Of a DNA stretch of 64,000 bases, positions 1,687-45,682 are shown in pieces (positions within the stretch are counted from its first letter, which is position 1; every line of letters begins with the position of its first letter). The DNA is from an uncultured virus (IMG/VR IMGVR_UViG_3300046468_001198). Taxonomy: Duplodnaviria; Heunggongvirae; Uroviricota; Caudoviricetes. Under the pieces are notes generated by a model that worked only from the letters and a program-made list of their open reading frames with translations, made no database searches and was not told the origin of the DNA. The stretch lies in IMG/VR virus record IMGVR_UViG_3300046468_001198. One strand, 5' to 3'. A program made the position numbers and the translations under genes.

Positions 1687-1831
1687 CCCAATCTATTCTG
1701 TTATACTTAGGTTTCTTCTTAACCTTGTTTTTAATTACCTTTGGACGAAAAGGTCCGTCTAAATCACGAACTTGTTTTGCTACCCAATTCCTAACCTTAG
1801 GTGCTTGAGGGCGCCTAACCTTCTTAGCCAT
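1679..1831 (-). CDS. small basic protein (50 aa)
   Basis: Manual: MAKKVRRPQAPKVRNWVAKQVRDLDGPFRPKVIKNKVKKKPKYNRIDWDD; TGATG coupling to upstream gene. Confidence 0.65.
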   Translation of the reverse strand: MAKKVRRPQAPKVRNWVAKQVRDLDGPFRPKVIKNKVKKKPKYNRIDWDD

Positions 1832-2349
1832 CACGCCCTCAAACTATCTATGTCTATCGGAGTAAAGTTGATCTGCTCAACACAAACACACTTGTAAGGT
1901 CCTTCGGGTGAAGGATTAGTGTGGATATGTCCGTGTACGTTCAACAAGTCGCCGTCACCAAACCTATGCTTCTCAGCAAGTGTGCTAGGGTGCAAAGGTG
2001 TGTGAGTAAAGATTAAACCTTTATCACTCATATCAATCCATAACTGGATATCTTTGAAGAACGGTGCAAGGTGCTTTACATTGTCGTGGTTACCAAGAAC
2101 AAGTCTTTTCTTACCAGGCAACTTTGCAAAGTTTGCTGTTAACCAATCAACTTTGTCCATACCAAAAAGAACGTCACCACAGTGAATAACAGTGTCGTTA
2201 GGACCAACTGTATCGTTCCAGTTGTCTAACATACACTGGTTCATTTGATCAACACTATCAAACTCTCTACACGGCTTACCAACGTAATCCTTAAAGTCAA
2301 GGATGTTTGCGTGGTTAAAGTGTGTGTCACTGATTACGAATATTGCCAT
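1831..2349 (-). CDS. calcineurin-like metallophosphoesterase
   Basis: Motifs SDTHF, CGD, GNHD, TH, HGHIH. Confidence 0.9.
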   Translation of the reverse strand: MAIFVISDTHFNHANILDFKDYVGKPCREFDSVDQMNQCMLDNWNDTVGPNDTVIHCGDVLFGMDKVDWLTANFAKLPGKKRLVLGNHDNVKHLAPFFKDIQLWIDMSDKGLIFTHTPLHPSTLAEKHRFGDGDLLNVHGHIHTNPSPEGPYKCVCVEQINFTPIDIDSLRA

Positions 2350-2383
2350 AGCCTTATGCCCTTGTGTGCCTAATTATACAACT

Positions 2384-2412
2384 ATTATACGACATATTTG
2401 ATACTATGTCAA
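2384..2412 (-). promoter_or_regulatory. sigma70-type early promoter
   Basis: TTGACA(2412-2407)-17 nt-TATAAT(2389-2384). Confidence 0.85.
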
Positions 2413-2419
2413 CCGAAAA

Positions 2420-2493
2420 TGGACACTAAGGCCGGAATCGAACCGGCGTACACGGAGTTGCAGTCCGTTGCATAGCCACTCTGCCACTTAGTG
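2420..2493 (-). tRNA. tRNA-Cys(GCA)
   Basis: Cloverleaf, anticodon loop CT-GCA-AC, GTTCGA T-loop, U discriminator, encoded CCA. Confidence 0.95.
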
Positions 2494-2494
2494 T

Positions 2495-2569
2495 TGGCTG
2501 GGGAAGTAGGATTCGAACCTACGATCTACTGTATCAAAAACAGTCGTCCTACCTCTAGACTATTCCCCA
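2495..2569 (-). tRNA. tRNA-Gln(TTG)
   Basis: Acceptor TGGGGAA/TTCCCCA, loop TT-TTG-AT, encoded CCA. Confidence 0.95.
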
Positions 2570-2574
2570 GTAAT

Positions 2575-2648
2575 TGGCATCGGTGGAGGGAGTCGAACCC
2601 CCGCTTGCGGTTTTGGAGACCGCCGTGCTACCATAACACTTCACCGAC
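2575..2648 (-). tRNA. tRNA-Trp(CCA)
   Basis: Loop CT-CCA-AA, GTTCGA, G discriminator, encoded CCA. Confidence 0.95.
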
Positions 2649-2683
2649 AAAAAAAGCCCCTAATGAATTAACACTAGGGGCTT
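2649..2683 (-). terminator. intrinsic terminator (attenuator) abutting the tRNA-Trp 5' end
   Basis: GCCCCTAGTG-TTAATT-CATTAGGGGC followed by T7. Confidence 0.9.
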
Positions 2684-2712
2684 GCTTAAAATAACTTTTT
2701 TATAAAGTCGCG

Positions 2713-2781
2713 TTAAGACATACCCCTTCCATGTATTGGGCACCAATTCTGTAATGACGATTGTTGTACAGTTCTTAACAC
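2713..2781 (-). CDS. putative attenuator leader peptide (22 aa, MLRTVQQSSLQNWCPIHGRGMS)
   Basis: GTG start 8 nt after AAGGA SD; stop codon lies inside a segment complementary to the terminator 5' arm. Confidence 0.75.
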   Translation of the reverse strand: MLRTVQQSSLQNWCPIHGRGMS

Positions 2782-2807
2782 GTTAGTATTCCTTATTTCT
2801 TATTATG

Positions 2808-2841
2808 TATTTATAATACACTCTTTATTCTGTTATGTCAA
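2808..2841 (-). promoter_or_regulatory. composite promoter: sigma70 TTGACA-17-TATTAT overlapping TATAAATA late-type box
   Basis: TTGACA 2841-2836, TATTAT 2818-2813, TATAAATA 2815-2808. Confidence 0.8.
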
Positions 2842-2998
2842 CATCTTTTTTATCTACTCTGCCTTTTTTCCCGCAGTGTGGACAATGAAATGTTGTTCGT
2901 TCAATGCAATACTTATCTTCCATTGTAGCATATGTAAACCAATTGCTACAACCCTTGCACGTTAAATGCCAAATTATTTCTTTGACTGCACTAAACAT
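2825..2998 (-). CDS. small zinc-ribbon protein (57 aa)
   Basis: Manual: MFSAVKEIIWHLTCKGCSNWF...FHCPHCGKKG; two CxxC. Confidence 0.75.
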   Translation of the reverse strand: MFSAVKEIIWHLTCKGCSNWFTYATMEDKYCIERTTFHCPHCGKKGRVDKKDVDITE

Positions 2999-3014
2999 TG
3001 TAAAAGTATTTAGC

Positions 3015-3173
3015 CTACTCCGGTGTTACCCAAGGATAACAAGGAATAATACTCTGCTTACAATATTTTGCATTGTCTACCATTAATAACGGAATGCCTA
3101 CAATAAAGAAAGCAATGATAAGGAATGCTGGTAACAATCCTTTTGTGGTACAATAATTAGTTTGTTCACTCAT
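3015..3173 (-). CDS. small membrane protein (52 aa)
   Basis: Manual: MSEQTNYCTTKGLLPAFLIIAFFIVGIPLLMVDNAKYCKQSIIPCYPWVTPE; ATGA overlap. Confidence 0.7.
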   Translation of the reverse strand: MSEQTNYCTTKGLLPAFLIIAFFIVGIPLLMVDNAKYCKQSIIPCYPWVTPE

Positions 3174-3475
3174 TCGTGTTCACCACCGTATCCACGTGAA
3201 TTAATACCGTTGTCTCTACGGAATGCTTTTGGATTGCGTTTAGCTGTTTCGAATGTTGCTACTGTGATTGCGATAGCACCTAGTAATAATGTATGTAGCA
3301 TCATACTAAACACTCCTGCCCACATACTACCTACAATAATAGCAAATACAATACACCACATCCATGCAAGGACTTGCATAATCATATGTCGTGTACTGAA
3401 GTCTGGAATGTTACTCAGCGGATTCATATTATGATCCATTACTACATTCCAACAATTGAATACCCATTCTCTCAT
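3170..3475 (-). CDS. hypothetical membrane protein
   Basis: Two hydrophobic segments, AAGGA SD. Confidence 0.8.
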   Translation of the reverse strand: MREWVFNCWNVVMDHNMNPLSNIPDFSTRHMIMQVLAWMWCIVFAIIVGSMWAGVFSMMLHTLLLGAIAITVATFETAKRNPKAFRRDNGINSRGYGGEHE

Positions 3476-3497
3476 CTTAGGGTCCTTTCTTTTTGTT

Positions 3498-3582
3498 TGG
3501 TGCGCCTGGAGGGACTTGAACCCCCACGCCGTAAAGCACTAGAACCTAAATCTAGCGTGTCTACCAATTTCACCACAGGCGC
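3498..3582 (-). tRNA. tRNA-Leu(TAG)
   Basis: Long variable arm, loop TT-TAG-GT, encoded CCA. Confidence 0.95.
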
Positions 3583-3589
3583 AATAATA

Positions 3590-3665
3590 TGGTGCCGGCA
3601 CCAAGATTCGAACTCGGGACCTACTGATTACAAATCAGTTGCTCTACCAACTGAGCTATGCCGGC
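3590..3665 (-). tRNA. tRNA-Thr(TGT)
   Basis: Canonical D arm, loop TT-TGT-AA, encoded CCA. Confidence 0.95.
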
Positions 3666-3832
3666 GTTTGACTTATTATAGTATCACGTATGATATCTTC
3701 GTACACACCATTTTCACACAATACTACTATTCGATCACTGTTCTCGTTTATTGGAATTATTTTACCAGTAACTTCTAATTCTTTACCAGTCTTCCAATGC
3801 CTATAAACAACTTTTACAACAGGATTATTCAT
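3656..3832 (-). CDS. hypothetical protein (58 aa); stop overlaps the tRNA-Thr 5' end
   Basis: Manual: MNNPVVKVVYRHWKTGKELEVTGKIIPINENSDRIVVLCENGVYEDIIRDTIISQTPA. Confidence 0.6.
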   Translation of the reverse strand: MNNPVVKVVYRHWKTGKELEVTGKIIPINENSDRIVVLCENGVYEDIIRDTIISQTPA

Positions 3833-3837
3833 ATTTT

Positions 3838-3987
3838 TTATCTGCGTTTATTCGCTTTCTTTTCAAGTGCGGCTCTACGTTTTAACGTATGTTCCATAGG
3901 TCCACTATTTAGTTTTTCAACGTTTGCTTTTATCTGAGCTACTGCACCTGCAATAATTGCTTCACGTTGTTCTTTTGTTTGTCGCAT
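3838..3987 (-). CDS. small basic hypothetical protein
   Basis: MRQTKEQ start with AGGAG SD; the longer track start lies inside tRNA-Gly. Confidence 0.65.
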   Translation of the reverse strand: MRQTKEQREAIIAGAVAQIKANVEKLNSGPMEHTLKRRAALEKKANKRR

Positions 3988-4005
3988 AATGCGACTCCTT
4001 TCTTT

Positions 4006-4079
4006 TGGAGCGGGTGAGGAGAATCGAACTCCTATCATTAGCTTGGAAGGCTAAGGTCTTACCATTACACAACACCCGC
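4006..4079 (-). tRNA. tRNA-Gly(TCC)
   Basis: GCGGGTG acceptor, loop CT-TCC-AA, U discriminator, CCA. Confidence 0.95.
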
Positions 4080-4083
4080 TTCT

Positions 4084-4173
4084 TGGCGGAAGATGTAGGA
4101 TTCGAACCCACGGTACGCTCTCACGTACAACGGATTAGTAATCCGCCGCTTTAAACCACTCAGCCAATCTTCC
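4084..4173 (-). tRNA. tRNA-Ser(ACT), rare A34 anticodon
   Basis: Long variable arm, G discriminator, stem GCGGA/TCCGT with loop TT-ACT-AA, CCA. Confidence 0.9.
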
Positions 4174-4191
4174 AGCTTATTACTTATACTA

Positions 4192-4521
4192 CTACGTTTT
4201 TGTATTATTGTCAACTGAAAAGTTATCTAACACTGTAACTTTTTTGACTCTATCATAACGGAAACTACGAAAACCTTTAGACTCGATAGCCCATACTGCA
4301 ACAACAGCATCAGATATCTCTCGAACTTTCTTTTGAGTAATTGCATCGTCTTTGCGAGCGGGCGGAAGGTACGATTCGACAAGCGTACAGGGCATTATAC
4401 GCTCATCGCCATTTAATTTGGTAAACGTAACTTCCACCACGTTTTCTTTTAACAACTTTAACAGTTCGTTTCTAGTAGGAATGCCTTTAAGGTCGGCAAC
4501 TTTATCTGCAACTTGGTTCAT
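4192..4521 (-). CDS. SH3/WYL_2-like (DUF2693-type) phage protein
   Basis: VEVTFTKLNGDERIMPCTL...VWAIESKGFRSFRYD motif; GAGGA SD before MNQVAD. Confidence 0.8.
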   Translation of the reverse strand: MNQVADKVADLKGIPTRNELLKLLKENVVEVTFTKLNGDERIMPCTLVESYLPPARKDDAITQKKVREISDAVVAVWAIESKGFRSFRYDRVKKVTVLDNFSVDNNTKT

Positions 4522-17922: not shown

Positions 17923-19977
17923 CTACTTACTTGTAGCAATAAACACACCATTCCAATCAGACGGTAAATCTTGAGTTTTTTGGAACTCACAACGTTCAAT
18001 CCACATGTCATAATAGCCTTCCATCTTGCCATCAAAATGACGTTTTAATCTTTCGCAAATATATATTGCTTCATCAAACTTCTGTGATCTATATGCATCG
18101 TGCATACGCTCGTGCATTTCTTGACTTTTCTTTTGGGCGTGTGTTCCTTTAACATCAAGTACAGTGTATATACTTAATCCTACACTTTTACCTTTTACTT
18201 GCAAGTCATCTACCTTTAAGTAAAAGAAGTTGTCTTTAGTTTGTTGATAAGTTGCATCTCCAACTAAGAGTAGACATCCGTATTCTTTACATTTGCTTTC
18301 GATTCTTGCGGCGGTACTGACTGCGTCTCCAAGTACATCGTACGAATGTCTTGCGGTGCTACCCATTTCTCCAAGATAGCCCAGTCCTGTATTGATTCCC
18401 GCACCCATACCGACAGGTGGTCGTCCTTCTGCTGTAATTTTATCATTAAACTTCTCCACCGCTTTTAACATTAATAATCCTGTCTCCACTGCGGTTCGTG
18501 GATGATGAGGATCATCTATAGGTGCGTTGTGTATGTGCATACTAGCATCACCAATATACTTGATTATCATTCCGTCTGCGTCTAGCACCGGTTGTGTAAT
18601 CGCATCCATATAGCCATTCATTATTTTGGTAAGTCCTTTTACGTCATCACCAAATGATTCACCTAGTGGAGTAAAGCCACGCAAGTCTGAGAACAGTATG
18701 CTTACTTCTCGTTTCATACCGTCTTTAATAAGTGCCGGATTTTCCTGTAATAAGCGTACTACAGTAGGTGATGCGTATCCTGCGAACTGTTTCTTTATTG
18801 CTTGCTTTTCTAAGAATTCTCGTACAAATTTGATACCATATACTTGCAATGCAATTATTACAAATACTATAACAGGTGCTGTAACATCTAAAAGAAACTT
18901 TTCTGTTGTGTACGCATATATGCTGTAAGGTACAACTCCGCCTATCATTACAACTGTTGTAACAAGACCTAACCACATCCAACGGCTGAGTAGTATAAGC
19001 AATAACCCACCTATAGCTAGTGCTAACAGTTCTGCATCAGGTGCCCAATCAGGACGCTGTATATTTGTACCATTAAACATTGTACCTAGTACAGCCGCTT
19101 GTGTAGTTCCTGCATATTGTGCGCCTATTGCTGTTGGAACAGGGTTTGCTACACCTGTTGCTGTAACATCTACTATTACTATTGCACCTTGAAATGACAT
19201 TATACCATCTTCTTTATATAAGTCAGTTACGCTTATACGATTAGAACGTTGACTCCAGTCTATCCATACACGCCCTTCTGAGTCAGTAGGTATTGGACCA
19301 AAGTTTGGTATACGCATTTTTTCAATACCAAACTGATTAAGTTTAATTTGGAAATTAGGATCGCCTGCAATAACACGTAGAGTTTCTAATGCTAGGCTAG
19401 GATATAGTGTACCGTCTACGACAGCGACAGTTGGCATGCGTCTTACAACACCATCTATCTCCGGCTCAGTTGAAACGATTCCTGCCCCAACACTATTATT
19501 TTCAAGTTCTGGAATATTTGCAATAATACCGCCGTATGGTAATATGCGATCTAAAAACTGTGCTTGTAATATTGCGGCCCCAGGATTTATAGGTTCGTTC
19601 TTTGTTTTGTCGCTGGGACGACTTGCTAGTATAACTGGTAGCTGACTCATTGTTGTTGCAAGATCAGCGTCACCACCTAATCGGTCTGCTTCGGGCATCA
19701 TTATATTCCATACAACTAGCCCTGCTCCTTTGTCATATAAGTCAATAATAATGTTTGAGTATATGTGTCTTGGAAAAGGATATTGTCCAAACTTGTCTAT
19801 AGTAGCATCGTCAATTTCTGCTACAAAGATATTGTTTTGCGTTGGTTCTTGATTAATAATCAGTTGATCAAAGTAATTTAGTTTGATACTTTGCAAAAAA
19901 TTATTAGGATTTGCAAACGCATATACTAATACCCCTAGTGTTAATAATGCCCACCAAGGGCTTAGTAATCTTTTCAT
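17923..19977 (-). CDS. CHASE2-domain class III adenylate/guanylate cyclase
   Basis: N-terminal TM, CHASE2-like (GQYPFPR, DGVVRRMP), 3 TMs, FSDLRGFT, KYIGDA, LGDAVSTAARIES, VKGK. Confidence 0.93.
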   Translation of the reverse strand: MKRLLSPWWALLTLGVLVYAFANPNNFLQSIKLNYFDQLIINQEPTQNNIFVAEIDDATIDKFGQYPFPRHIYSNIIIDLYDKGAGLVVWNIMMPEADRLGGDADLATTMSQLPVILASRPSDKTKNEPINPGAAILQAQFLDRILPYGGIIANIPELENNSVGAGIVSTEPEIDGVVRRMPTVAVVDGTLYPSLALETLRVIAGDPNFQIKLNQFGIEKMRIPNFGPIPTDSEGRVWIDWSQRSNRISVTDLYKEDGIMSFQGAIVIVDVTATGVANPVPTAIGAQYAGTTQAAVLGTMFNGTNIQRPDWAPDAELLALAIGGLLLILLSRWMWLGLVTTVVMIGGVVPYSIYAYTTEKFLLDVTAPVIVFVIIALQVYGIKFVREFLEKQAIKKQFAGYASPTVVRLLQENPALIKDGMKREVSILFSDLRGFTPLGESFGDDVKGLTKIMNGYMDAITQPVLDADGMIIKYIGDASMHIHNAPIDDPHHPRTAVETGLLMLKAVEKFNDKITAEGRPPVGMGAGINTGLGYLGEMGSTARHSYDVLGDAVSTAARIESKCKEYGCLLLVGDATYQQTKDNFFYLKVDDLQVKGKSVGLSIYTVLDVKGTHAQKKSQEMHERMHDAYRSQKFDEAIYICERLKRHFDGKMEGYYDMWIERCEFQKTQDLPSDWNGVFIATSK

Positions 19978-29290: not shown

Positions 29291-30943
29291 TCAGAGAACA
29301 ACCGTCTTTTCGTTTTTTATTCTTCCGAGACGTTCATGTACAGGCATAATGTCAGTAAGACTGCACTCAGAAGTTATTAACAAGCCTGCTACACTAGATG
29401 CATTTAGTAATGCACTTCGTGTTACTTTAACAGGATCAATAATTCCTAAGTCGTACATGTTACCATAACTATCAGTTGCCGCATCATAGCCAAATGTATT
29501 TTCTGTTGATTTAAATATACTATCAACTACTACATCAGGCGCTCCGCCAGCATTGCTAGTTATTTGTCGAATAGGTGCTTCAACTGCTTTTAGTACAATT
29601 TTAGCACCTGCTTCTTGATCCAAGTTTACTAAGTTAAGATCACTTACTTGGATATCCTTTACTGCGTTAAGTAGTGCAACACCACCGCCAGGTACAATGC
29701 CCTGTTCTCTTGCCGCACTTGTCGCATGTAATGAATCTACATATCTATCTTTCTTTTCCATGGCTTCTATTTTTGATGAGCCGCCTGCTTTAATAATTGC
29801 AACTCCGCCATCCATTGATGATAGTCTTTCTTTTAATTTGTTTGCGTTATGATCATTTGATGCTGAAAATAAATGATTTTTAATAAGTGTTATACGTTCT
29901 TTTATTTTTTCTGGATCACCACGGCCACCGATAATTGTAGTAAACAGATTACCAATTTCAACTCGTTCTGCTTTACCTAAGTCAGTAACTTGTGCATCTT
30001 CTAAACTTCGATTAAGTTCATCTGAAATAACATTACCACCTGTAAGTGTTGCAATGTCTTCTAGTATCGGAAGTCTTCTATCAGCATATCCTGGAGCAAC
30101 AACTGCGGCTACCTTAAATGCACCACTCGTATGATTTTGTACTAAAACATTTAATGCATCAGGTTCAATATCTTCTGCAATGATTATCAATGCTAATCCT
30201 GTAGTTGCTACTTGTTCAAATAATTTAATTAAAGGATTAAGAGTAGTAATCTTTTTATCGTATAATAATATTAATGCATTTTCATGAACAATAGTCATAT
30301 CTTCTAAGTTGTTAGAAAAATAAGGACTCATATAGCCTCTGTCAAATCTACAACCTTTAACAATTTCAACATGGTCTTTTCTATCAGCGTGTATATCAAC
30401 TGATACTGCACCATTAGTTCCGACTTTCATTAAAGCATCAGCAATTTTTTCACCAATGGCTCTATCAGAGTTTGCAGATAAACTAGCGACATTTTCTAAA
30501 TCTTCTTTAGATGTGCAAGGTTGTGATTGCTTATCTAAGTTATCAGCAATAACTTCTACAGTTGCATCAATACCTCTTTTTAAATCCATAGGATTCATAC
30601 CAGCTGTTACAAGTTTTAATCCTTCAGTGATAATTGCTTGTGTTAAAACTGTAGCTGTAGTAGTGCCATCACCAGCATCAGTATTAGTTCTTCTTGCGGC
30701 TTCTAATACCATTTGTGCGCCCATGTTTTCTAATGGGTCGTCTAACATAACTTCTTGAGCTACTGTAACACCGTCTTTTGTAACTACTGGTTGTTTCAAC
30801 GGTACTTGAATAATTACATTACGACCTTTAGGACCTAGTGTAGTCCTAACAGCGTTTGAAAGTATGTTAACACCTTCTAATAAAGCAGTACGATTCTCTT
30901 CACCAAACCGTACCATTTTTGAAGTTAAGTCTGCTTCAGACAT
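29291..30943 (-). CDS. groL: chaperonin GroEL (divergent, no GGM tail)
   Basis: TTLGPKGRNV, TKDGVTVA, AGDGTTTATVL, FDRGY.SPYF, GIVPGGG, IIDP.KV. Confidence 0.95.
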   Translation of the reverse strand: MSEADLTSKMVRFGEENRTALLEGVNILSNAVRTTLGPKGRNVIIQVPLKQPVVTKDGVTVAQEVMLDDPLENMGAQMVLEAARRTNTDAGDGTTTATVLTQAIITEGLKLVTAGMNPMDLKRGIDATVEVIADNLDKQSQPCTSKEDLENVASLSANSDRAIGEKIADALMKVGTNGAVSVDIHADRKDHVEIVKGCRFDRGYMSPYFSNNLEDMTIVHENALILLYDKKITTLNPLIKLFEQVATTGLALIIIAEDIEPDALNVLVQNHTSGAFKVAAVVAPGYADRRLPILEDIATLTGGNVISDELNRSLEDAQVTDLGKAERVEIGNLFTTIIGGRGDPEKIKERITLIKNHLFSASNDHNANKLKERLSSMDGGVAIIKAGGSSKIEAMEKKDRYVDSLHATSAAREQGIVPGGGVALLNAVKDIQVSDLNLVNLDQEAGAKIVLKAVEAPIRQITSNAGGAPDVVVDSIFKSTENTFGYDAATDSYGNMYDLGIIDPVKVTRSALLNASSVAGLLITSECSLTDIMPVHERLGRIKNEKTVVL

Positions 30944-41937: not shown

Positions 41938-42191
41938 TATAATGTATGTCCTGTGCCGTTGTAACCTGTGTTATCAACATATTCTAATAAACTTTCATAC
42001 CCACCAACTTTATTACCACCAACGATAATTTGTGGGAATGTCCTTGCTGTAGGAAATACTTCAAACACTTCTTCTCTGTCAAAGTCTTTACCTAGTTCTT
42101 TGTACACATAAGGAAGCGATCTGCTTTCGCAAAACTGTTTTGCCTTTGTGCATGATGGACAAGCTGGCTTGCCCCAAATTTCAATTGTCAT
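41937..42191 (-). CDS. glutaredoxin
   Basis: CPSC, RTFPQI, VGGY. Confidence 0.93.
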   Translation of the reverse strand: MTIEIWGKPACPSCTKAKQFCESRSLPYVYKELGKDFDREEVFEVFPTARTFPQIIVGGNKVGGYESLLEYVDNTGYNGTGHTL

Positions 42192-43315
42192 AAACTAAAT
42201 CCTTTAAATGTGTCAGCTGACACATCTTGTTTAGTGCCGCCTTGAACATAACTAGTTATCTCAGTCTCTTGTGGTGCCACCTGAACTTCGGCTCCTGAGA
42301 TCCATTTCTGTGTCCACGGCAATGGGTTTTGTTTTTGGTTGTATGGACTTTTAAGACCTACGTTTGTCATTCTACGTGTACAAATAAATTCAATGTACTG
42401 GCTTAACAATTCTGTGTTTAGTCCAATCATTGATCCGTCTTTGAACAAATAGTTAGCCCATTCTTTTTCTTGATCAACTGCTTCTACAAACATCTGAATA
42501 CATTCAGCTTCTGTTTCTTTTGCAATTTTTGCAAAGTCTTTGTCGTCAGTTTTTAACACTTTCAATAGTGCTTGTGTTGATGCAAGATGCAAGTTTTCAT
42601 CTCTAGCAATAAGTTTAATAATCTTAGCATTGCCTTCCATCTTTTTAAGTTCTGCAAATGCCCAACTACATGCAAAAGACACATAGAAGCGAACACCTTC
42701 AAGAATGTTTACACTCATTAACGCAAGCCAAAGTTTTTTCTTTAGCTCGTACATATCTACTTCTACTTTATTGCCATTAACTGTGTGTGTTCCTGCACCT
42801 AACAGGTTGTAATACATACTAGTTTCAATAAGATCGTCATAGTGTTTAGATATACTATCTGCACAATCAACAATTTCACCTACATCCATAAGTTCATCAA
42901 ATACTTTACTTGGATTTGAATATACATTACGAATAATATGTGTGTAACTACGTGAATGGATAGTTTCACTAAAGGTCCAAGTAATGATCCAATTTTCAAG
43001 TTCTGGTAAAGAAACAATAGAACCAAAACTTTCTGCAGGTGCACGACCTTGAACACTATCTAATAGAATTTGTCTCTTCAAATTAGAAGTAAAGATATGC
43101 TGTTCGTGTTCAGTAAGTGACTTGAAGTCAGCCGAATCCTTATAGATATCAACTTCTTCAGGTCTCCAAAAGAATCCTAACTGTTTGTCAGTTAACCCGT
43201 CAAACTGTTTATACTTTAGATTATCATATCGTTGTATAGTAGGACCGCCTGATGGATCTAAAAATGCTTTTACTTTAGTATGATCGACTCTGTTATCTAC
43301 GTCAAATACGCCCAT
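42188..43315 (-). CDS. nrdB: ribonucleotide reductase class Ia beta subunit
   Basis: FFWRPEEVD, ETIHSRSYTHI, LEGVRFYVSFAC, RDENLH. Confidence 0.97.
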   Translation of the reverse strand: MGVFDVDNRVDHTKVKAFLDPSGGPTIQRYDNLKYKQFDGLTDKQLGFFWRPEEVDIYKDSADFKSLTEHEQHIFTSNLKRQILLDSVQGRAPAESFGSIVSLPELENWIITWTFSETIHSRSYTHIIRNVYSNPSKVFDELMDVGEIVDCADSISKHYDDLIETSMYYNLLGAGTHTVNGNKVEVDMYELKKKLWLALMSVNILEGVRFYVSFACSWAFAELKKMEGNAKIIKLIARDENLHLASTQALLKVLKTDDKDFAKIAKETEAECIQMFVEAVDQEKEWANYLFKDGSMIGLNTELLSQYIEFICTRRMTNVGLKSPYNQKQNPLPWTQKWISGAEVQVAPQETEITSYVQGGTKQDVSADTFKGFSL

Positions 43316-43381
43316 TATATTTTACTTCCTTTATGTCTCTGCGTGTCTATGTATATTAACACGTTATTGCTCTGTTGTCAA

Positions 43382-45682
43382 CTATATTGTGCATGATTCA
43401 CAATATTCGTCGTCTTCAATTTCAGTTGGTGCTAGTTCTGTTTCAAACATTTTGTTGACATCTAATTCGCCCTGGCCATCATATGTATTGAAATAGTATA
43501 ATTGTTTGCCGCCTAGTTTATAAAACAACAATAAATGTTGTAGCATTGTACTTAGCGGAATTTTTTCATCGTCAAAATATGTTGGGTTGTAGCTTGTGTT
43601 TACGCTTACACCTTGATCAATGTATTTCTGTAGTACAGACACAATTTTAATATACCCTTCAGGTGAGCGGTGCTCCCATAGTAAATCATATTTGTTTTTA
43701 AGCCTTTTATATTCAGGCACAACTTGTTTAAGTACACCGTGCTTGCTTTGTTTAATAGATATAAGCGAACGTGGCGGCTCAATTCCGTTAGTTGCATTTG
43801 CAATTTGCGCACTTGTTTCACTTGGCATAAGTGCCATTAGTGTTGAATTACGAATGCCTGTTTCTTTAAGTTGTTCACGTAATTTATCCCAAGGCATACG
43901 TTCTTTGTGAGGAACAATCTCGTCAAGGGCTTTTGAATATGTTTGATTAGGTGTAATACCATGTCCGTATTTTGTTTCCATGTTGCCACTTGGTGCTCCT
44001 TGCTCTGCGGCTAGGTCAGCACTCGCTTTAATTAGATAGTAACTCCATGCTTCGGCCCATTCGTCAATTAGTTCTAGTCCTTCTGCATCAATATTCTGAT
44101 AGTCGAGTCCGTTCTTTGCCATCCAATATGCAAAATTAATAATGCCAACGCCTAAAGGTCTACGCTTTTCTGTAGATAACTGTGCGGCTAGTATTGGATA
44201 GTCTTGATAACTTAATAGTGCATCAAGTCCACGAACTGCAAGTCGACATACTCTTTCAAAATCACTAACTGATTTAATGTTGCCCCAATTGATTGCGCTA
44301 AGTGTACATAGGGAAATCTCACCTTCAGGGTCATTAAGATCTTTTAGTGGCTTTGTTGGTAAGTCAATCTCTGCACATAGGTTTGATTGACGAATAGGTG
44401 CAACCTCAGGAAGGAATGACCCATGCTCATTAGCATTGTCTACGTTCTGTAGATAAATGCGTCCTGTATTCTTACGCTCTTCCATAAATGTACTAAACAA
44501 TTGAATAGCTGGAATAGTTTTCTTACGCAACTTTGTATTGCGTTCTGCTGTTTCATATAATTCTTTAAACTTGTCTTGGTCTGCATAAAATGCTTCATAC
44601 AGTCCTGGTACATCACTAGGCGAGAAAAGAGTTATATCGGCGCCCGCAATAAGTCTTTCATACATTAGTTTATTAAACTGCACACCGTAGTCCATATGGC
44701 GTACACGATTATCTTCTGTACCTTTGTTGTTCTTTAGCACTAACATTTCTTCAACTTCTAAATGCCAGGCTGGGTAATATACTGTAGCGGCTCCGCCTCT
44801 AACTCCGCCCTGCGAGCACGATTTTACTGCACTTTGAAATAGTTTATAAAACGGGATAATACCTGTGTGATAAGCATCACCTTTACGTACTGGCGAACCA
44901 ATAGCACGAATCTTGCCGCCGCCAATTCCAATGCCTGCTTTTTGACTTACGTACTTAACAATACTTGATGCAGTAGCATTAATACTATCAAGACTGTCGT
45001 CACTTTCAATAAGGACGCAACTACTGAATTGTCGCTGTGGAGTTCTAACACCAGCCATAACAGGAGTAGGCAAACTAATATCGTGTAAACTAATAGCATC
45101 ATAATATTCTTTAATCCAGTGTAGTCGAGTTTCTGTTGGATAACTTTGGAATAATGTTGCCGCAATTAGTACATAGCACATTTGAGGTGTTTCAAAGATC
45201 TCTCCGTTTACTCTGTTTTGACATAGGTACTTGCCACGTAGCTGTTCCATTGCTACATAGGTTAAGTTTTCGTCGCGTTCGTGTTTAACAAAACTATTGA
45301 TTCGTTGCCACTCTTCGTCGTTATAATATGAAATGAGGTCAGGATCATAAAAGCCTAAATCTATATTCCTTTCAACAAGTTCTTTCACTGTGCAAGGTGT
45401 ATAGTTACCGTATACTTCTTTGCGTAATGCATAATTAATTAGCCTACCACCAACGAACTGATAGTTTGGTGTTTCTTCACTGATAAGATCAGCGGCAGCC
45501 TTAATTAAAGTTTCTTGAATTTCTTTAGTAGTCATACCGTTTGCAAAACTAATTTGACTTTTTATCTCTACCTCGCTTGGGCTAACTCCTGTTATATTTT
45601 CACATGCATGAAAAACTACTTTGTGTAATTTTTCTATATCTAGTGGCTCTTTACGCCCGTCTCGCTTGGTAACTTGAATCAT
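43382..45682 (-). CDS. nrdA: ribonucleotide reductase class Ia alpha subunit
   Basis: ATP cone VTKRDG, QFSSCVL, SQGGVRGG, SNLCAEI, C-terminal CESCTI. Confidence 0.97.
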   Translation of the reverse strand: MIQVTKRDGRKEPLDIEKLHKVVFHACENITGVSPSEVEIKSQISFANGMTTKEIQETLIKAAADLISEETPNYQFVGGRLINYALRKEVYGNYTPCTVKELVERNIDLGFYDPDLISYYNDEEWQRINSFVKHERDENLTYVAMEQLRGKYLCQNRVNGEIFETPQMCYVLIAATLFQSYPTETRLHWIKEYYDAISLHDISLPTPVMAGVRTPQRQFSSCVLIESDDSLDSINATASSIVKYVSQKAGIGIGGGKIRAIGSPVRKGDAYHTGIIPFYKLFQSAVKSCSQGGVRGGAATVYYPAWHLEVEEMLVLKNNKGTEDNRVRHMDYGVQFNKLMYERLIAGADITLFSPSDVPGLYEAFYADQDKFKELYETAERNTKLRKKTIPAIQLFSTFMEERKNTGRIYLQNVDNANEHGSFLPEVAPIRQSNLCAEIDLPTKPLKDLNDPEGEISLCTLSAINWGNIKSVSDFERVCRLAVRGLDALLSYQDYPILAAQLSTEKRRPLGVGIINFAYWMAKNGLDYQNIDAEGLELIDEWAEAWSYYLIKASADLAAEQGAPSGNMETKYGHGITPNQTYSKALDEIVPHKERMPWDKLREQLKETGIRNSTLMALMPSETSAQIANATNGIEPPRSLISIKQSKHGVLKQVVPEYKRLKNKYDLLWEHRSPEGYIKIVSVLQKYIDQGVSVNTSYNPTYFDDEKIPLSTMLQHLLLFYKLGGKQLYYFNTYDGQGELDVNKMFETELAPTEIEDDEYCESCTI

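Follow-up and report, generated by a model that had tools for sequence, protein, structure and literature searches.

The window, by which we mean the whole stretch of 64,000 nucleotides analysed here, from an uncultured member of the Caudoviricetes (IMG/VR record IMGVR_UViG_3300046468_001198), carries on its minus strand a cluster of three tRNA genes preceded by a short leader. An earlier note on this DNA, made from the sequence alone, had described a promoter, a Shine-Dalgarno (SD) sequence, a 22-codon open reading frame (ORF), an intrinsic terminator and the three tRNAs, and all of these were recovered where it had placed them. The features, including the RNA segments needed below, are as follows.

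2841-2813, minus strand: candidate promoter TTGACA-17-TATTAT, sigma-70-type, 11/12 matches
2794-2790, minus strand: SD sequence AAGGA, 8 nt 5' of the GTG start
2781-2713, minus strand: leader ORF MLRTVQQSSLQNWCPIHGRGMS, 22 codons, GTG to TAA
2782-2773, minus strand: 5' arm of helix P1, CGUGUUAAGA, with the start codon inside it; pairs with 2718-2709 in the MFE fold
2745-2737, minus strand: putative control codons TGG TGC CCA (Trp13, Cys14, Pro15), with TGG at 2745-2743
2727-2713, minus strand: region 2, AGGGGUAUGUCUUAA, 5' strand of the predicted antiterminator, from folding and conserved pairing with region 3
2718-2709, minus strand: 3' arm of P1, UCUUAACGCG, with the stop codon TAA (2715-2713) inside it; overlaps region 2
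2709-2693, minus strand: small hairpin GACUUU-AUAAA-AAAGUU inside the antiterminator, from folding; 97% paired in relatives
2689-2676, minus strand: region 3, UUAAGCAAGCCCCU, 3' strand of the predicted antiterminator; 2683-2676 is common to the terminator 5' arm
2683-2649, minus strand: predicted intrinsic terminator, stem-loop 2683-2654 with 12 pairs (6 GC) and a 6-nt loop
2648-2575, minus strand: tRNA-Trp (CCA)
2569-2495, minus strand: tRNA-Gln (UUG)
2493-2420, minus strand: tRNA-Cys (GCA)
2412-2384, minus strand: next promoter, TTGACA-17-TATAAT, 12/12 matches, serving a phosphoesterase gene at 2349-1831

The predicted leader RNA is about 155 nt long. The -35 box of its promoter falls inside the final codons of an upstream 57-aa ORF, and the run of seven U residues that ends the terminator (2655-2649) closes on base -1 of tRNA-Trp, which starts at 2648, so that the U-tract does touch the first base of the tRNA as had been described. 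Promoter-like sites in the region are no more frequent than chance would give (7 observed, 7.4 expected), and a match alone is therefore at chance level; the leader promoter is credible because 67/73 relatives have TTGACN-17-TANNN[TA] at the same place. At the other end, the promoter at 2412-2384 marks the end of the leader-tRNA unit and bears out the claim that the next protein gene has a promoter of its own. No terminator was predicted between tRNA-Cys and this promoter, and the further claim that the output is limited to the three tRNAs goes beyond what is seen here. No other terminator was predicted on the minus strand of the window, where tRNA-Ser and tRNA-Gly come straight after a promoter. 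A second leader ahead of other tRNA clusters was not found in the window or in one relative (L001), in which a 220-nt gap 5' of tRNA-Gln is occupied by an ordinary small protein gene and no leader.

The leader is conserved as one unit with tRNA-Trp. A scan of viral contigs for the leader-core pattern, not conditioned on the presence of a tRNA, returned 77 loci, all on uncultured viral contigs, and at 76 of them the first downstream tRNA is tRNA-Trp(cca); at the 77th the contig ends after only 78 nt. The module is represented by 61 distinct sequences from many metagenomes and is abundant in marine viromes, and the genes upstream of it vary, being tRNAs at some loci and the 57-aa ORF at others. 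At half of the loci with a measurable gap (37/74), the U-run lies 0-13 nt from the tRNA; because this is too small for a promoter, expression of the tRNA there needs read-through of the terminator. A terminator ahead of genes that lack a promoter of their own is accordingly the usual arrangement, with one exception, the lineage of L124/L160, in which a promoter-like site lies between the leader and tRNA-Trp. This exception counts against attenuation, as do the other 37/74 loci, where terminator and tRNA lie 70-131 nt apart, with other structured RNA or a second mini-ORF between them, and the near-identical tRNA-Trp genes found elsewhere, which stand without a leader at 47 of the 71 evaluable loci and in phage Melnitz.

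Searches beyond the uncultured contigs gave little. In 596 Gb of bacterial genomes the leader core had five matches, none with a terminator or a tRNA; these lie inside coding regions and were set aside as chance matches that give no clue to a host or a cellular homologue. Judged by a single protein, the closest cultured relative is Methylophilales phage Melnitz (53% identity), whose tRNA-Trp has no leader, terminator or promoter module. Searches of the cultured-phage database with the leader region (megablast and blastn) gave nothing beyond a match of about 50 nt to tRNA-Trp of Arthrobacter phages. Public RNA data comprised 24 runs, as contigs only, of which four were compared with positions 1800-4300; the pieces lie mostly over tRNA bodies, many are only 90-95% identical and probably come from other organisms, and none bridges the terminator.

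An ORF of 18-24 codons with an ATG or GTG start and one Trp codon was present in every relative examined. Among 47 distinct leaders, 41 start with ATG and 6 with GTG, 40 stop at TGA, 6 at TAA and 1 at TAG, and an SD-like purine run is found in 44, so that a short ORF with initiation signals lies between the promoter and the tRNA genes. Loss of the leader ORF and of its Trp codon in relatives, which the earlier note had named as grounds for abandoning its proposal, was not observed: TGG is invariant in 42/42 distinct ORFs, and some relatives have two Trp codons. Across the 42 distinct peptides the context is usually C-W-P-P or W-C-P. The codons after TGG are CCN or TGC, with the third base varying synonymously (entropy at positions 1/2/3 of 0.86/0.86/1.62 and 0.37/0.53/1.13 for the two codons following Trp), and the rest of the peptide drifts with no excess at third positions (1.08/1.23/1.04). 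At five loci in two lineages (L102/L303 and L324/L334/L345), the C-terminal frame has shifted while the nucleotides were kept. This is the conservation pattern expected of a leader peptide and not of a functional protein. Counting stops in the other two frames cannot tell coding from non-coding here, with internal stops in 24/47 and 28/47 leaders. The bases of TGG TGC CCA are unpaired in both of the conserved folds described below, and region 2 begins 12-18 nt after the Trp codon across leaders (18 nt in the window). A control codon cognate to the first regulated tRNA is thus in place, though one Trp codon is atypically few. Classical attenuators carry tandem control codons, and a single one would make the sensitivity low unless the Pro/Cys context boosts the stall, which is a point against attenuation.

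Folding predictions point to two alternative structures. The leader of the window folds better than all of 200 shuffled versions (z = -3.43). With the terminator 3' arm withheld, its predicted fold is the antiterminator that the earlier note had proposed, in which region 2 pairs with region 3 around the hairpin at 2709-2693; the computed energies are -18.8 kcal/mol for this structure and -20.1 kcal/mol for the terminator. With a ribosome placed on the stop codon of the window leader, no structure was predicted. With a ribosome at the Trp codon, the full-length MFE fold (-25.3 kcal/mol) includes the terminator, which therefore wins at equilibrium; this counts against attenuation and means that the model needs kinetic control, as in trpL. 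In an alignment-free test on 20 leaders, the ribosome was taken to cover the RNA as far as W+12, and the 3' arm of the terminator was left out as not yet transcribed. The antiterminator was predicted in 20/20 at -17.5 to -22.3 kcal/mol (z = -2.9 to -4.5), and the same leaders with the ribosome at the stop codon gave 0 to -3.6 kcal/mol. In the most diverged lineage (L035) the cognate duplex of regions 2 and 3 scored -16.1, compared with -9.6 and -9.2 for non-cognate combinations.

Pairing in relatives was examined on two alignments, one made with MAFFT from 52 distinct leaders and one made with a covariance model (86 rows, 61 distinct) that was fitted to the terminated state only; the controls were slid pairings and shuffles, the latter of which ignore phylogeny. 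The terminator is 93.0% paired on the MAFFT alignment, with a covariation score reached by 0/500 shuffles, and 93-95% paired over the alignments. A second helix, P1, joins the start codon to the stop codon; it is 88.7% paired on the MAFFT alignment, 5 of its 10 pairs have changed on both sides, and its covariation score too was reached by 0/500 shuffles. In the terminated state as a whole, compensatory changes occur in 17/27 pairs. The antiterminator is 92.4% paired on the covariance-model alignment, which was not fitted to it, compared with 29.5-69.3% for slid pairings, and has changed on both sides in 6 pairs and 30 cells, a score reached by 0/500 shuffles. On the MAFFT alignment, also unfitted, its covariation is not significant (60/500 shuffles reach the score), and this must be counted against it; sequence conservation is high in both strands, each of which must also satisfy the pairing of another helix. 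The predictions support both alternative folds, with a terminator and an antiterminator that are mutually exclusive and an antiterminator strand that overlaps the end of the ORF, the support for the antiterminator being weaker on the MAFFT alignment.

The helix that competes with the antiterminator is not the one that had been suggested. The earlier note had named a pairing of GUGCCC, over the Trp and Cys codons, with GGGUAU (a 1:2 helix); this helix is in the MFE fold of the window, but is weak and poorly conserved, with only 67.6% pairing in relatives compared with 21-56% for slid controls. The conserved competitor is P1, which the note had missed. P1 competes with the antiterminator because its 3' arm overlaps region 2, and it supplies the anti-antiterminator pairing. 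It could in principle also re-form behind a ribosome stalled at the Trp codon and compete there with the antiterminator.

Judging from sequence and predicted folding, we think it rather probable that this leader is a ribosome-mediated leader-peptide transcription attenuator, which places a phage tRNA operon headed by tRNA-Trp under feedback control. The parts of the trp/his-type architecture invoked by the earlier note are present and ordered. Transcription by the host RNA polymerase would begin at the sigma-70 promoter and yield the leader RNA, which could take either of two folds. In one, P1 and the intrinsic terminator would form and transcription would end ahead of tRNA-Trp; in the other, region 2 (GGGG...UCUUAA, the last five codons and the stop) would pair with region 3 (UUAAG...CCCC), block the terminator and let the polymerase enter tRNA-Trp and the tRNAs that follow. 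The choice would fall to the ribosome translating the leader, given that transcription and translation are coupled in the host, as the model assumes. Prompt decoding of UGG and the neighbouring Cys/Pro codons would bring the ribosome to region 2 or the stop codon, mask region 2 and leave the terminator to form. A ribosome stalled with UGG or the adjacent Cys codon in its A site would have its front edge 12-18 nt 5' of region 2, so that region 2 could pair with region 3 ahead of synthesis of the terminator 3' arm, allowing read-through. If no ribosome were present, P1 would hide the start codon and part of region 2, and termination would be the default. Because the product of read-through is tRNA-Trp, the circuit would amount to negative feedback on UGG decoding capacity, with tRNA synthesis turned on by a shortage of charged tRNA and turned off once there is enough; the flanking codons may partly extend the feedback to other tRNAs of the operon.

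The earlier note had remarked that the leader carries codons for all three downstream tRNAs, and had suggested testing whether leader codons co-vary with tRNA content in related phages. Among the relatives, the Trp codon is invariant, Cys codons track their tRNA, and Gln codons are no general feature of the leaders; most lineages have Cys and Pro codons around UGG, and some have Ser, Ile, His, Gln, Arg or Glu there. For the co-variation, 44 distinct leader/operon combinations were compared over the codons from W-2 to W+3. A cognate codon lies near the Trp codon for 46/63 non-Trp tRNAs, compared with 34.1 on shuffling, and 0/5000 shuffles were as high. Over the 44 combinations tRNA-Cys never occurs without a Cys codon near the Trp codon (21/0/15/8), and the corresponding counts for Ser(UGA) are 3/1/1/39. 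When independent pairs were taken on a tree, the change in codon agreed with that in tRNA in 8.7 and opposed it in 0.7, and 24.5 of the roughly 34 pairs in which a tRNA was gained or lost saw no change in leader codons. This last figure counts against co-variation, as do the Pro codons, which are found in the leader whether or not the operon has tRNA-Pro. The codons adjacent to Trp seem to track the operon tRNAs in part, an association with strong support from naive permutation and, on the tree, a weak signal that runs in one direction. It is conceivable, though we regard it as doubtful, that the leader is a programmable multi-tRNA sensor in which codons near UGG are selected to match the operon tRNAs and replacement tRNAs are supplied on demand; under such a reading the need could follow from the degradation of host tRNAs during takeover or from their cleavage by tRNA-targeting defence nucleases.

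Several other explanations have to be weighed against the attenuator. The most conserved nucleotides of the module are non-coding, namely GACUUUUUAAAAAGUUAUUUUA and the terminator, and an A/U-rich single strand beside a terminator hairpin with a long U-tail resembles sRNAs of the Hfq type; P1 and the terminator make a stable covarying fold, and the weak Rfam matches of 20-24 bits include Spot 42 and other sRNAs. These features would suit an independent or dual-function sRNA gene acting in trans, with the tRNAs made through constitutive leakage of the terminator and no translational regulation, and rnTrpL of Sinorhizobium offers a precedent for a trans-acting sRNA derived from an attenuator (PMC6614838). 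We consider this unlikely, since it does not account for the linkage to tRNA-Trp at 76/77 loci, for a UGG that is invariant, unpaired and set at a constant distance from region 2, for the conservation of the SD, the start codon and the pairing that excludes the terminator, or for the association of codons with tRNAs. A role as an sRNA in trans and an attenuator in cis are compatible with each other. An attenuator could also be signalled by nascent-peptide arrest at W-P-P or W-C-P in place of tRNA supply; such an arrest might require EF-P, or respond to free tryptophan in the manner of TnaC, and would report general translation status or tryptophan. Woolstenhulme reportedly described FxxYxIWPP as an arrest motif in 2013, and here Trp is followed by Pro within 1-3 residues in nearly all leaders (at W+1 in 33/42, at W+2 in 35/42). 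TnaC blocks Rho-dependent termination, and control of that type uses Rho and not an intrinsic terminator, which speaks against arrest as the signal here. Some leaders have no Pro beside the Trp codon (W-C-S in L122, W-L-L in L035). In addition, a ribosome pausing with its A site on the second Pro codon would lie over the first bases of region 2 and favour termination instead of read-through, so that the Pro codons are better understood as serving to hold the ribosome on region 2. We therefore hold signalling by arrest to be improbable, even though WPPP is a known strong arrest motif relieved by EF-P (PMC11669330, PMC4176338).

Direct sensing of tRNA-Trp, with UGG serving as a T-box-like specifier that pairs with the CCA anticodon and no translation involved, would account for a UGG that is invariant and unpaired in both folds and for the alternation of antiterminator and terminator. 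It is very improbable in view of the length of the leader, only about 155 nt, and of the conservation of the SD, the start codon, the frame up to the Trp codon and the stop codon; no second contact for the acceptor end of a tRNA was identified in the leader, and the T-box family (RF00230) is absent among the 23 Rfam matches listed for 2630-2850 at E up to 10, and among those listed at E up to 0.01 in eight relatives. Finally, there is hardly any likelihood that the ORF is a chance one between the upstream gene's terminator and the tRNA cluster, with no functional unit at all. A 22-codon ORF is not rare in AT-rich DNA, each of the other two frames is free of stops in roughly half of the leaders, and promoter-like sites are as frequent as chance predicts; set against this, the module is conserved over 61 distinct sequences, with covarying helices and an invariant Trp codon, whatever gene lies upstream, and a chance origin is already contradicted by these data.

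Leader-peptide attenuation is textbook regulation of amino-acid biosynthesis and transport and of a few aminoacyl-tRNA synthetase genes. Like trpL and the his, phe, thr, leu and ilv leaders, the phage element combines a short ORF near the promoter, equipped with its own SD, with three pairings that overlap (anti-antiterminator, antiterminator and terminator) and an intrinsic terminator that has a U-run, and the genes behind it lack a promoter of their own; with trpL it also shares a Trp control codon and a stop codon near region 2. It differs from trpL in that it would control tRNAs and not biosynthetic enzymes, in its single UGG in place of tandem control codons, and in its anti-antiterminator, which is a start:stop helix and not a helix over the control codons. 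It also lies outside the Rfam Trp_leader sequence family: neither the window nor any of eight relatives gave an Rfam match that exceeded the cut-off of its family, and membership of Trp_leader (RF00513) was rejected at 19.6 bits against a gathering cut-off of 41, the match being one of many terminator-driven matches of about 20 bits. T-boxes likewise sense a specific tRNA, as is proposed here, through an antiterminator/terminator switch ahead of translation-related genes; they bind the tRNA directly, are 200-300 nt long and contain no ORF, unlike the shorter phage leader with its conserved SD and ORF.

Among cellular synthetase genes, pheST of E. coli, with its leader pheM, is controlled by a leader-peptide attenuator. 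Others are reported at alaS, thrS and trpS of Streptomyces lividans (PMC8079986). Synthetase leaders resemble the phage element in placing a translation-apparatus gene behind an ORF with codons for its own amino acid, and in letting the decoding machinery respond to how much charged tRNA is available; they are cellular and control the charging enzyme, whereas the phage leader is viral and would control the tRNA itself. The W-P-P(-P) arrest peptides (PMC11669330, PMC4176338) share with most of the phage leaders the W-P-P core and, like TnaC, would share the control of downstream transcription by a short leader peptide; their action depends on the nascent chain inside the exit tunnel, and they are not sensors of tRNA supply. 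The phage module differs from them and from TnaC in its intrinsic terminator and RNA antiterminator and in the leaders that have no Pro-Pro.

The leader before tRNA-Trp looks like a trp-operon-style sensor that would release tRNAs only when decoding of UGG falters. We found no report of leader-peptide attenuation of tRNA genes, or in a phage, in the full text of open-access papers and bioRxiv, in line with the earlier note, which knew of none for tRNA genes. If the attenuator is real, decoding of the cognate codon would feed back directly on tRNA abundance, which would explain simply how a virus can adjust the dose of the tRNAs it encodes. Current work presents phage tRNAs as countermeasures to tRNA-cleaving immunity such as PARIS (PMC11464382, PMC12409363), and a tRNA operon triggered by stalling would then be an inducible counter-defence. 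Should the doubtful multi-tRNA reading also hold, this would be the first autoregulated tRNA operon under leader-peptide attenuation and a counter-defence circuit with built-in feedback. Being compact (about 155 nt) and modular, the element could serve as a codon-specific translation sensor. The phage leader has no sequence similarity to rnTrpL/peTrpL of Sinorhizobium meliloti; as with that RNA (PMC6614838, PMC7298713), termination in the leader would yield a plentiful structured RNA, here of about 155 nt, which, made from a strong promoter, could also act in trans.

A ribosome-mediated attenuator giving feedback control of the phage tRNA-Trp operon is probably the best explanation of the leader unit that precedes tRNA-Trp(CCA) in the window. 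An earlier note, made from the sequence alone, had listed a promoter, SD, leader ORF, terminator and Trp/Gln/Cys tRNAs in this order, and all are present on the minus strand:

2841-2813, minus strand: sigma-70-type promoter TTGACA-17-TATTAT, 11/12 matches
2794-2790, minus strand: SD AAGGA, 8 nt 5' of the GTG
2781-2713, minus strand: leader ORF of 22 codons with GTG start, MLRTVQQSSLQNWCPIHGRGMS
2683-2649, minus strand: terminator with 12-bp stem (6 G-C pairs), 6-nt loop and seven T
2648-2575, minus strand: tRNA-Trp(CCA), the base directly 5' being the last T of the terminator
2569-2495, minus strand: tRNA-Gln(UUG)
2493-2420, minus strand: tRNA-Cys(GCA)
2412-2384, minus strand: promoter of the phosphoesterase gene, 12/12 matches

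The last of these agrees with the proposal that the next protein gene has its own promoter. Promoter-like sites taken from a scan alone are at chance level in this region (7 found, 7.4 expected), and terminator-like sites are somewhat enriched (5 versus 2.1 expected). The −35 box of the leader promoter lies within the final codons of a 57-aa ORF with two CxxC pairs (zinc-ribbon-like; 2825-2998, minus strand), which has no PHROG match and whose 3' end is kept upstream of the leader in L003, L019, L023 and L046, all loci on uncultured viral contigs. Elsewhere in the window, tRNA-Ser (anticodon called ACU) and tRNA-Gly(UCC) (4173-4006) have a plain promoter directly 5' (TTGACA-17-TAGTAT, 4186-4214, minus strand), about 12 nt before the tRNA and, unlike the Trp unit, with no leader.

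Nothing similar to the leader was found in cultured-phage databases, where the match is limited to about 50 nt of tRNA-Trp. Uncultured viral contigs gave 12 loci in an exact terminator search, at least 116 loci with one tRNA-Trp pattern and 73 with another; a leader profile matches 35 of 191 loci (those orientable by a tRNA-Trp motif among the loci collected to that stage, plus the window), and the diverged lineage L124/L160 was added by visual inspection. The least biased sample comes from a scan with a pattern of the leader core only (GACTTT..AAGTTATTTTA..GCCC), which returned 77 loci from viral contigs; the first downstream tRNA is Trp(CCA) in 76, and the contig of the remaining locus ends 78 nt past the match. 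Among 185,579 bacterial and archaeal species, each represented by one genome, the same pattern has five matches, all within coding sequence and none with a terminator or tRNA beside it. Because the upstream neighbour differs by locus (tRNA genes in some, the CxxC ORF in others), as do the tRNAs after Trp (Pro, Cys, Ser, Gln, Glu, Arg, Ile, His, Met, Gly, Ala, Lys), the promoter, leader, terminator and tRNA-Trp behave as a single conserved unit. A chance arrangement is ruled out by this conservation. The unit is not required for tRNA-Trp expression generally. Among 71 evaluable loci with a nearly identical tRNA-Trp core, the leader is present in 24, another tRNA lies up to 60 nt upstream in 30 or 61-200 nt upstream in 2, and something else, including a plain promoter, is found in 15; the tRNA-Trp of Methylophilales phage Melnitz has no leader module of this type. 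Some tRNA-Trp(CCA) genes are 85 nt long (two copies in L003, 2900-2984 and 4426-4510, minus strand; also L308), with about 8-11 additional bases 3' of the anticodon stem, perhaps an intron, perhaps an unusual variable arm. ARAGORN also calls a ~100-nt 'tRNA-Asp(atc)' of odd anticodon and length 5' of the leader in L152 (1038-1138) and L135 (305-406), which could be a tRNA with an intron or a tRNA-like element called in error.

Across 47 distinct leaders the ORF is 18-22 codons long, starts with ATG (41) or GTG (6), stops with TGA (40), TAA (6) or TAG (1), and has an SD-like purine run in 44. Taken alone, the openness of the frame is weak evidence, because the other two frames contain internal stops in only 24/47 and 28/47 leaders. 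Conservation of the ORF and of its Trp codon (W), which the earlier note had expected in relatives, is borne out: start, stop and SD are kept, and TGG occurs at the homologous place in 42/42 distinct ORFs with zero entropy at its three bases. This invariance is not explained by structure, since UGG is unpaired in both conserved folds. The following two codons are mostly Pro, and their entropy by position (0.86/0.86/1.62 and 0.37/0.53/1.13), low at positions 1-2 and high at position 3, reads as a codon-level signature. Cys directly precedes W in 27/42 and comes after it in 7 more leaders, and this adjacency, kept in either order (TGT-TGG or TGG-TGC), would not be a product of RNA-pairing constraint. 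The peptide 5' of W drifts, with no third-position excess (1.08/1.23/1.04). In five loci of two lineages (L102/L303 and L324/L334/L345) the frame is shifted after W-P-P and the stop lies 5-13 nt further downstream with the nucleotides kept, so the C-terminal part is conserved as RNA, not protein. The pattern fits a leader peptide and speaks against a functional small protein. Upstream, TTGACN-17-TANNN[TA] is found in 67/73 loci, the spacer being 17 nt throughout. Four of the six loci lacking it (L306, L310, L318, L319) have in common CCTATCACTTTATAT(T/A)AA in the corresponding position, which could be a promoter of another, perhaps phage-specific, type, and L312/L335 have another upstream sequence.

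The leader RNA of the window folds at −42.2 kcal/mol, better than all 200 shuffles (z = −3.43). Among 52 distinct leaders aligned with MAFFT (A2), a helix absent from the earlier account, here P1, pairs the start-codon region (2782-2773) with the stop-codon region (2718-2709), hiding the start codon and competing with the antiterminator for UCUUAA. P1 is 88.7% paired versus 20-58% in slid controls, with 5/10 pairs changed on both sides and a covariation score reached by 0/500 shuffles (shuffle controls ignore phylogeny throughout, and their figures are not probabilities); the pair at the first base of the start codon alternates between A-U and G-C, so that the choice of ATG or GTG covaries with the base opposite. 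Pairing in the terminator reaches 93.0%, and 0/500 shuffles are as high. The 1:2 helix of the earlier note, at 67.6% versus up to 56% slid, was discounted. With a covariance model built from the terminated-state structure alone (86 rows, 61 distinct), the fitted state is 93.5% paired and 17/27 pairs are changed on both sides.

When the terminator 3' arm is withheld from folding, representing the moment before its transcription, region 2 (2727-2713) pairs with region 3 (2689-2676, sharing 2683-2676 with the terminator 5' arm) around a small hairpin (2709-2693). This is exactly the antiterminator drawn previously, at −18.8 kcal/mol (terminator, −20.1). If a ribosome occupies the stop codon, no fold in the window competes with the terminator. 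On A2 the antiterminator is 91.3% paired versus 22-63% slid, and its covariation is not significant (60/500 shuffles reach the score); on the covariance-model alignment, which was not fitted to it, it is 92.4% paired versus 29.5-69.3% slid, with 6 pairs and 30 cells changed on both sides and 0/500 shuffles reaching the score, phylogeny ignored. In an alignment-free test, masking by a ribosome to W+12 (counted from W) gives an antiterminator of −17.5 to −22.3 kcal/mol in 20/20 leaders (z = −2.9 to −4.5), the terminators of which score −13.3 to −23.2, and a ribosome at the stop codon gives 0 to −3.6. Cognate duplexes of regions 2 and 3 beat non-cognate ones by a mean of only 0.97 kcal/mol, and in the L306 lineage the cognate duplex is worse; in L035, the most diverged lineage, the computed energies (−16.1 cognate versus −9.6 and −9.2) point to clear co-evolution of the two regions.

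UGG lies 12-19 nt upstream of region 2, which is the geometry of a classical attenuator, and the unit would work like trpL; it falls outside the Rfam family Trp_leader, scoring 19.6 bits where the cut-off is 41. If a ribosome stalls while UGG or its neighbouring Cys codon occupies the A site, region 2 would stay exposed and could capture region 3 ahead of synthesis of the terminator 3' arm. Once the ribosome has moved on, to the Pro codons, into region 2 or up to the stop codon, it would mask region 2 and let the terminator form; with no ribosome, P1 would form and then the terminator. Control would need to be kinetic, because the terminator still wins at equilibrium with a ribosome parked at W. 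Of 74 loci in which the gap could be measured, the window among them, 37 have a U-run that ends 0-13 nt short of the tRNA, too little for a promoter, so that tRNA expression requires read-through, and as the first product is tRNA-Trp the outcome would be a negative feedback loop on the decoding of UGG. Sequence analysis establishes the anatomy, how far it is conserved and both alternative folds, and the interpretation of the earlier note is supported in part, with the 1:2 helix removed; we infer that the leader is translated, that the folds compete kinetically and that they respond to tRNA supply.

A separate sRNA or dual-function gene whose terminator leaks seems to us unlikely: it accounts for the highly conserved non-coding stretch and the sRNA-like 3' end, but not for the linkage to tRNA-Trp, the pairing that excludes the terminator, the SD and start codon, or a UGG that is invariant though unpaired. 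An arrest peptide acting through W-P-P is plausible as a modifier, WPPP being described as a strong EF-P-dependent arrest motif (PMC11669330, PMC4176338), although a ribosome pausing at the Pro codons would sit over region 2, which favours termination. Direct sensing of tRNA in the manner of a T-box finds no support, the T-box family not being among the Rfam matches listed for the leader region. For the attenuator, the nearest printed precedents found are leader-peptide attenuators on the aminoacyl-tRNA synthetase genes alaS, thrS and trpS of Streptomyces lividans (PMC8079986); open-access papers and preprints, a scope outside which older subscription literature on phage tRNA regions falls, yielded none on tRNA genes or in any phage, the one candidate for a tRNA operon turning out to be unrelated.

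The earlier note had also pointed to leader codons for all three downstream tRNAs, and a match of this kind holds in part across relatives. Over 44 distinct leader/operon combinations, a cognate codon lies between W-2 and W+3 for 46/63 non-Trp tRNAs, versus 34.1 on shuffling operons among leaders (0/5000 as high). tRNA-Cys never occurs without a Cys codon near W (21/0/15/8), and the corresponding counts are 3/1/1/39 for Ser(UGA) and 3/0/3/38 for Ile(UAU); Pro codons are present in all combinations whether or not the operon has tRNA-Pro (15/0/29/0), and Glu, Arg(GCG), His (near W), Met, Ala and Gly have no association. On a short tree ('quick' mode) from flanks and tRNA with control codons excluded, pooled independent pairs differing in tRNA presence show a concordant change of the cognate codon in 8.7, a change in the other direction in 0.7 and none in 24.5 (approximate sign test 0.004 near W, 0.02 for the whole ORF), and no single tRNA reaches significance. 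The signal is real but partial, and a multi-tRNA sensor is the bold case, not our main claim.

The window encodes a head protease, and its long ORFs, nearly all on the minus strand, include:

29291-30943, minus strand: GroEL-like chaperonin
42188-45682, minus strand: class I ribonucleotide reductase subunits
17923-19977, minus strand: 684-aa protein

The 684-aa protein shares 53% identity with an 'adenylate/guanylate cyclase domain' protein from Melnitz, a T4-like marine phage and, judged by one protein, the closest relative in culture; its identity to such a protein from Pelagibacter phage HTVC008M is 33%. This gene content and the similarity to Melnitz and pelagimyophages place the window among large marine phages of AT-rich streamlined bacteria, a group for which cis-acting RNA control has been described in a glutamine riboswitch on phage tmRNA (PMC9004378).

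In some relatives, additional elements separate tRNA-Trp from the leader terminator. One, absent from the window and present in three lineages (L162/L314/L353, L035/L134, L124/L160), is a further conserved mini-ORF that has an SD of its own and a W-[R/K]-W core. Its versions (MTDSEYWRWMKSQVE, MTASEYWRWMKDNIQ, MQYDDPSDYWKWMKNNFQ) differ by synonymous or conservative changes, no terminator follows it, and it could be another translated element rich in Trp codons ahead of this tRNA. In L124/L160 a promoter-like TTGACA-17-TATTAA lies between this mini-ORF and tRNA-Trp, which may not depend on read-through there. Elsewhere a structured insert of 83-94 nt (18 distinct sequences, alignment A3; e.g., L301:1663-1747, L290:1006-1097, L354:1479-1569), recognised by neither Rfam nor ARAGORN, takes a cloverleaf-like shape in which a 10-bp outer helix surrounds three hairpins, with compensatory changes in 9/25 pairs; U4-5 and A6 come next. 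The insert could represent a decayed tRNA-like element, a second terminator or a processing signal, and L281, L283, L285, L317 and L323 have shorter versions (76-79 nt).
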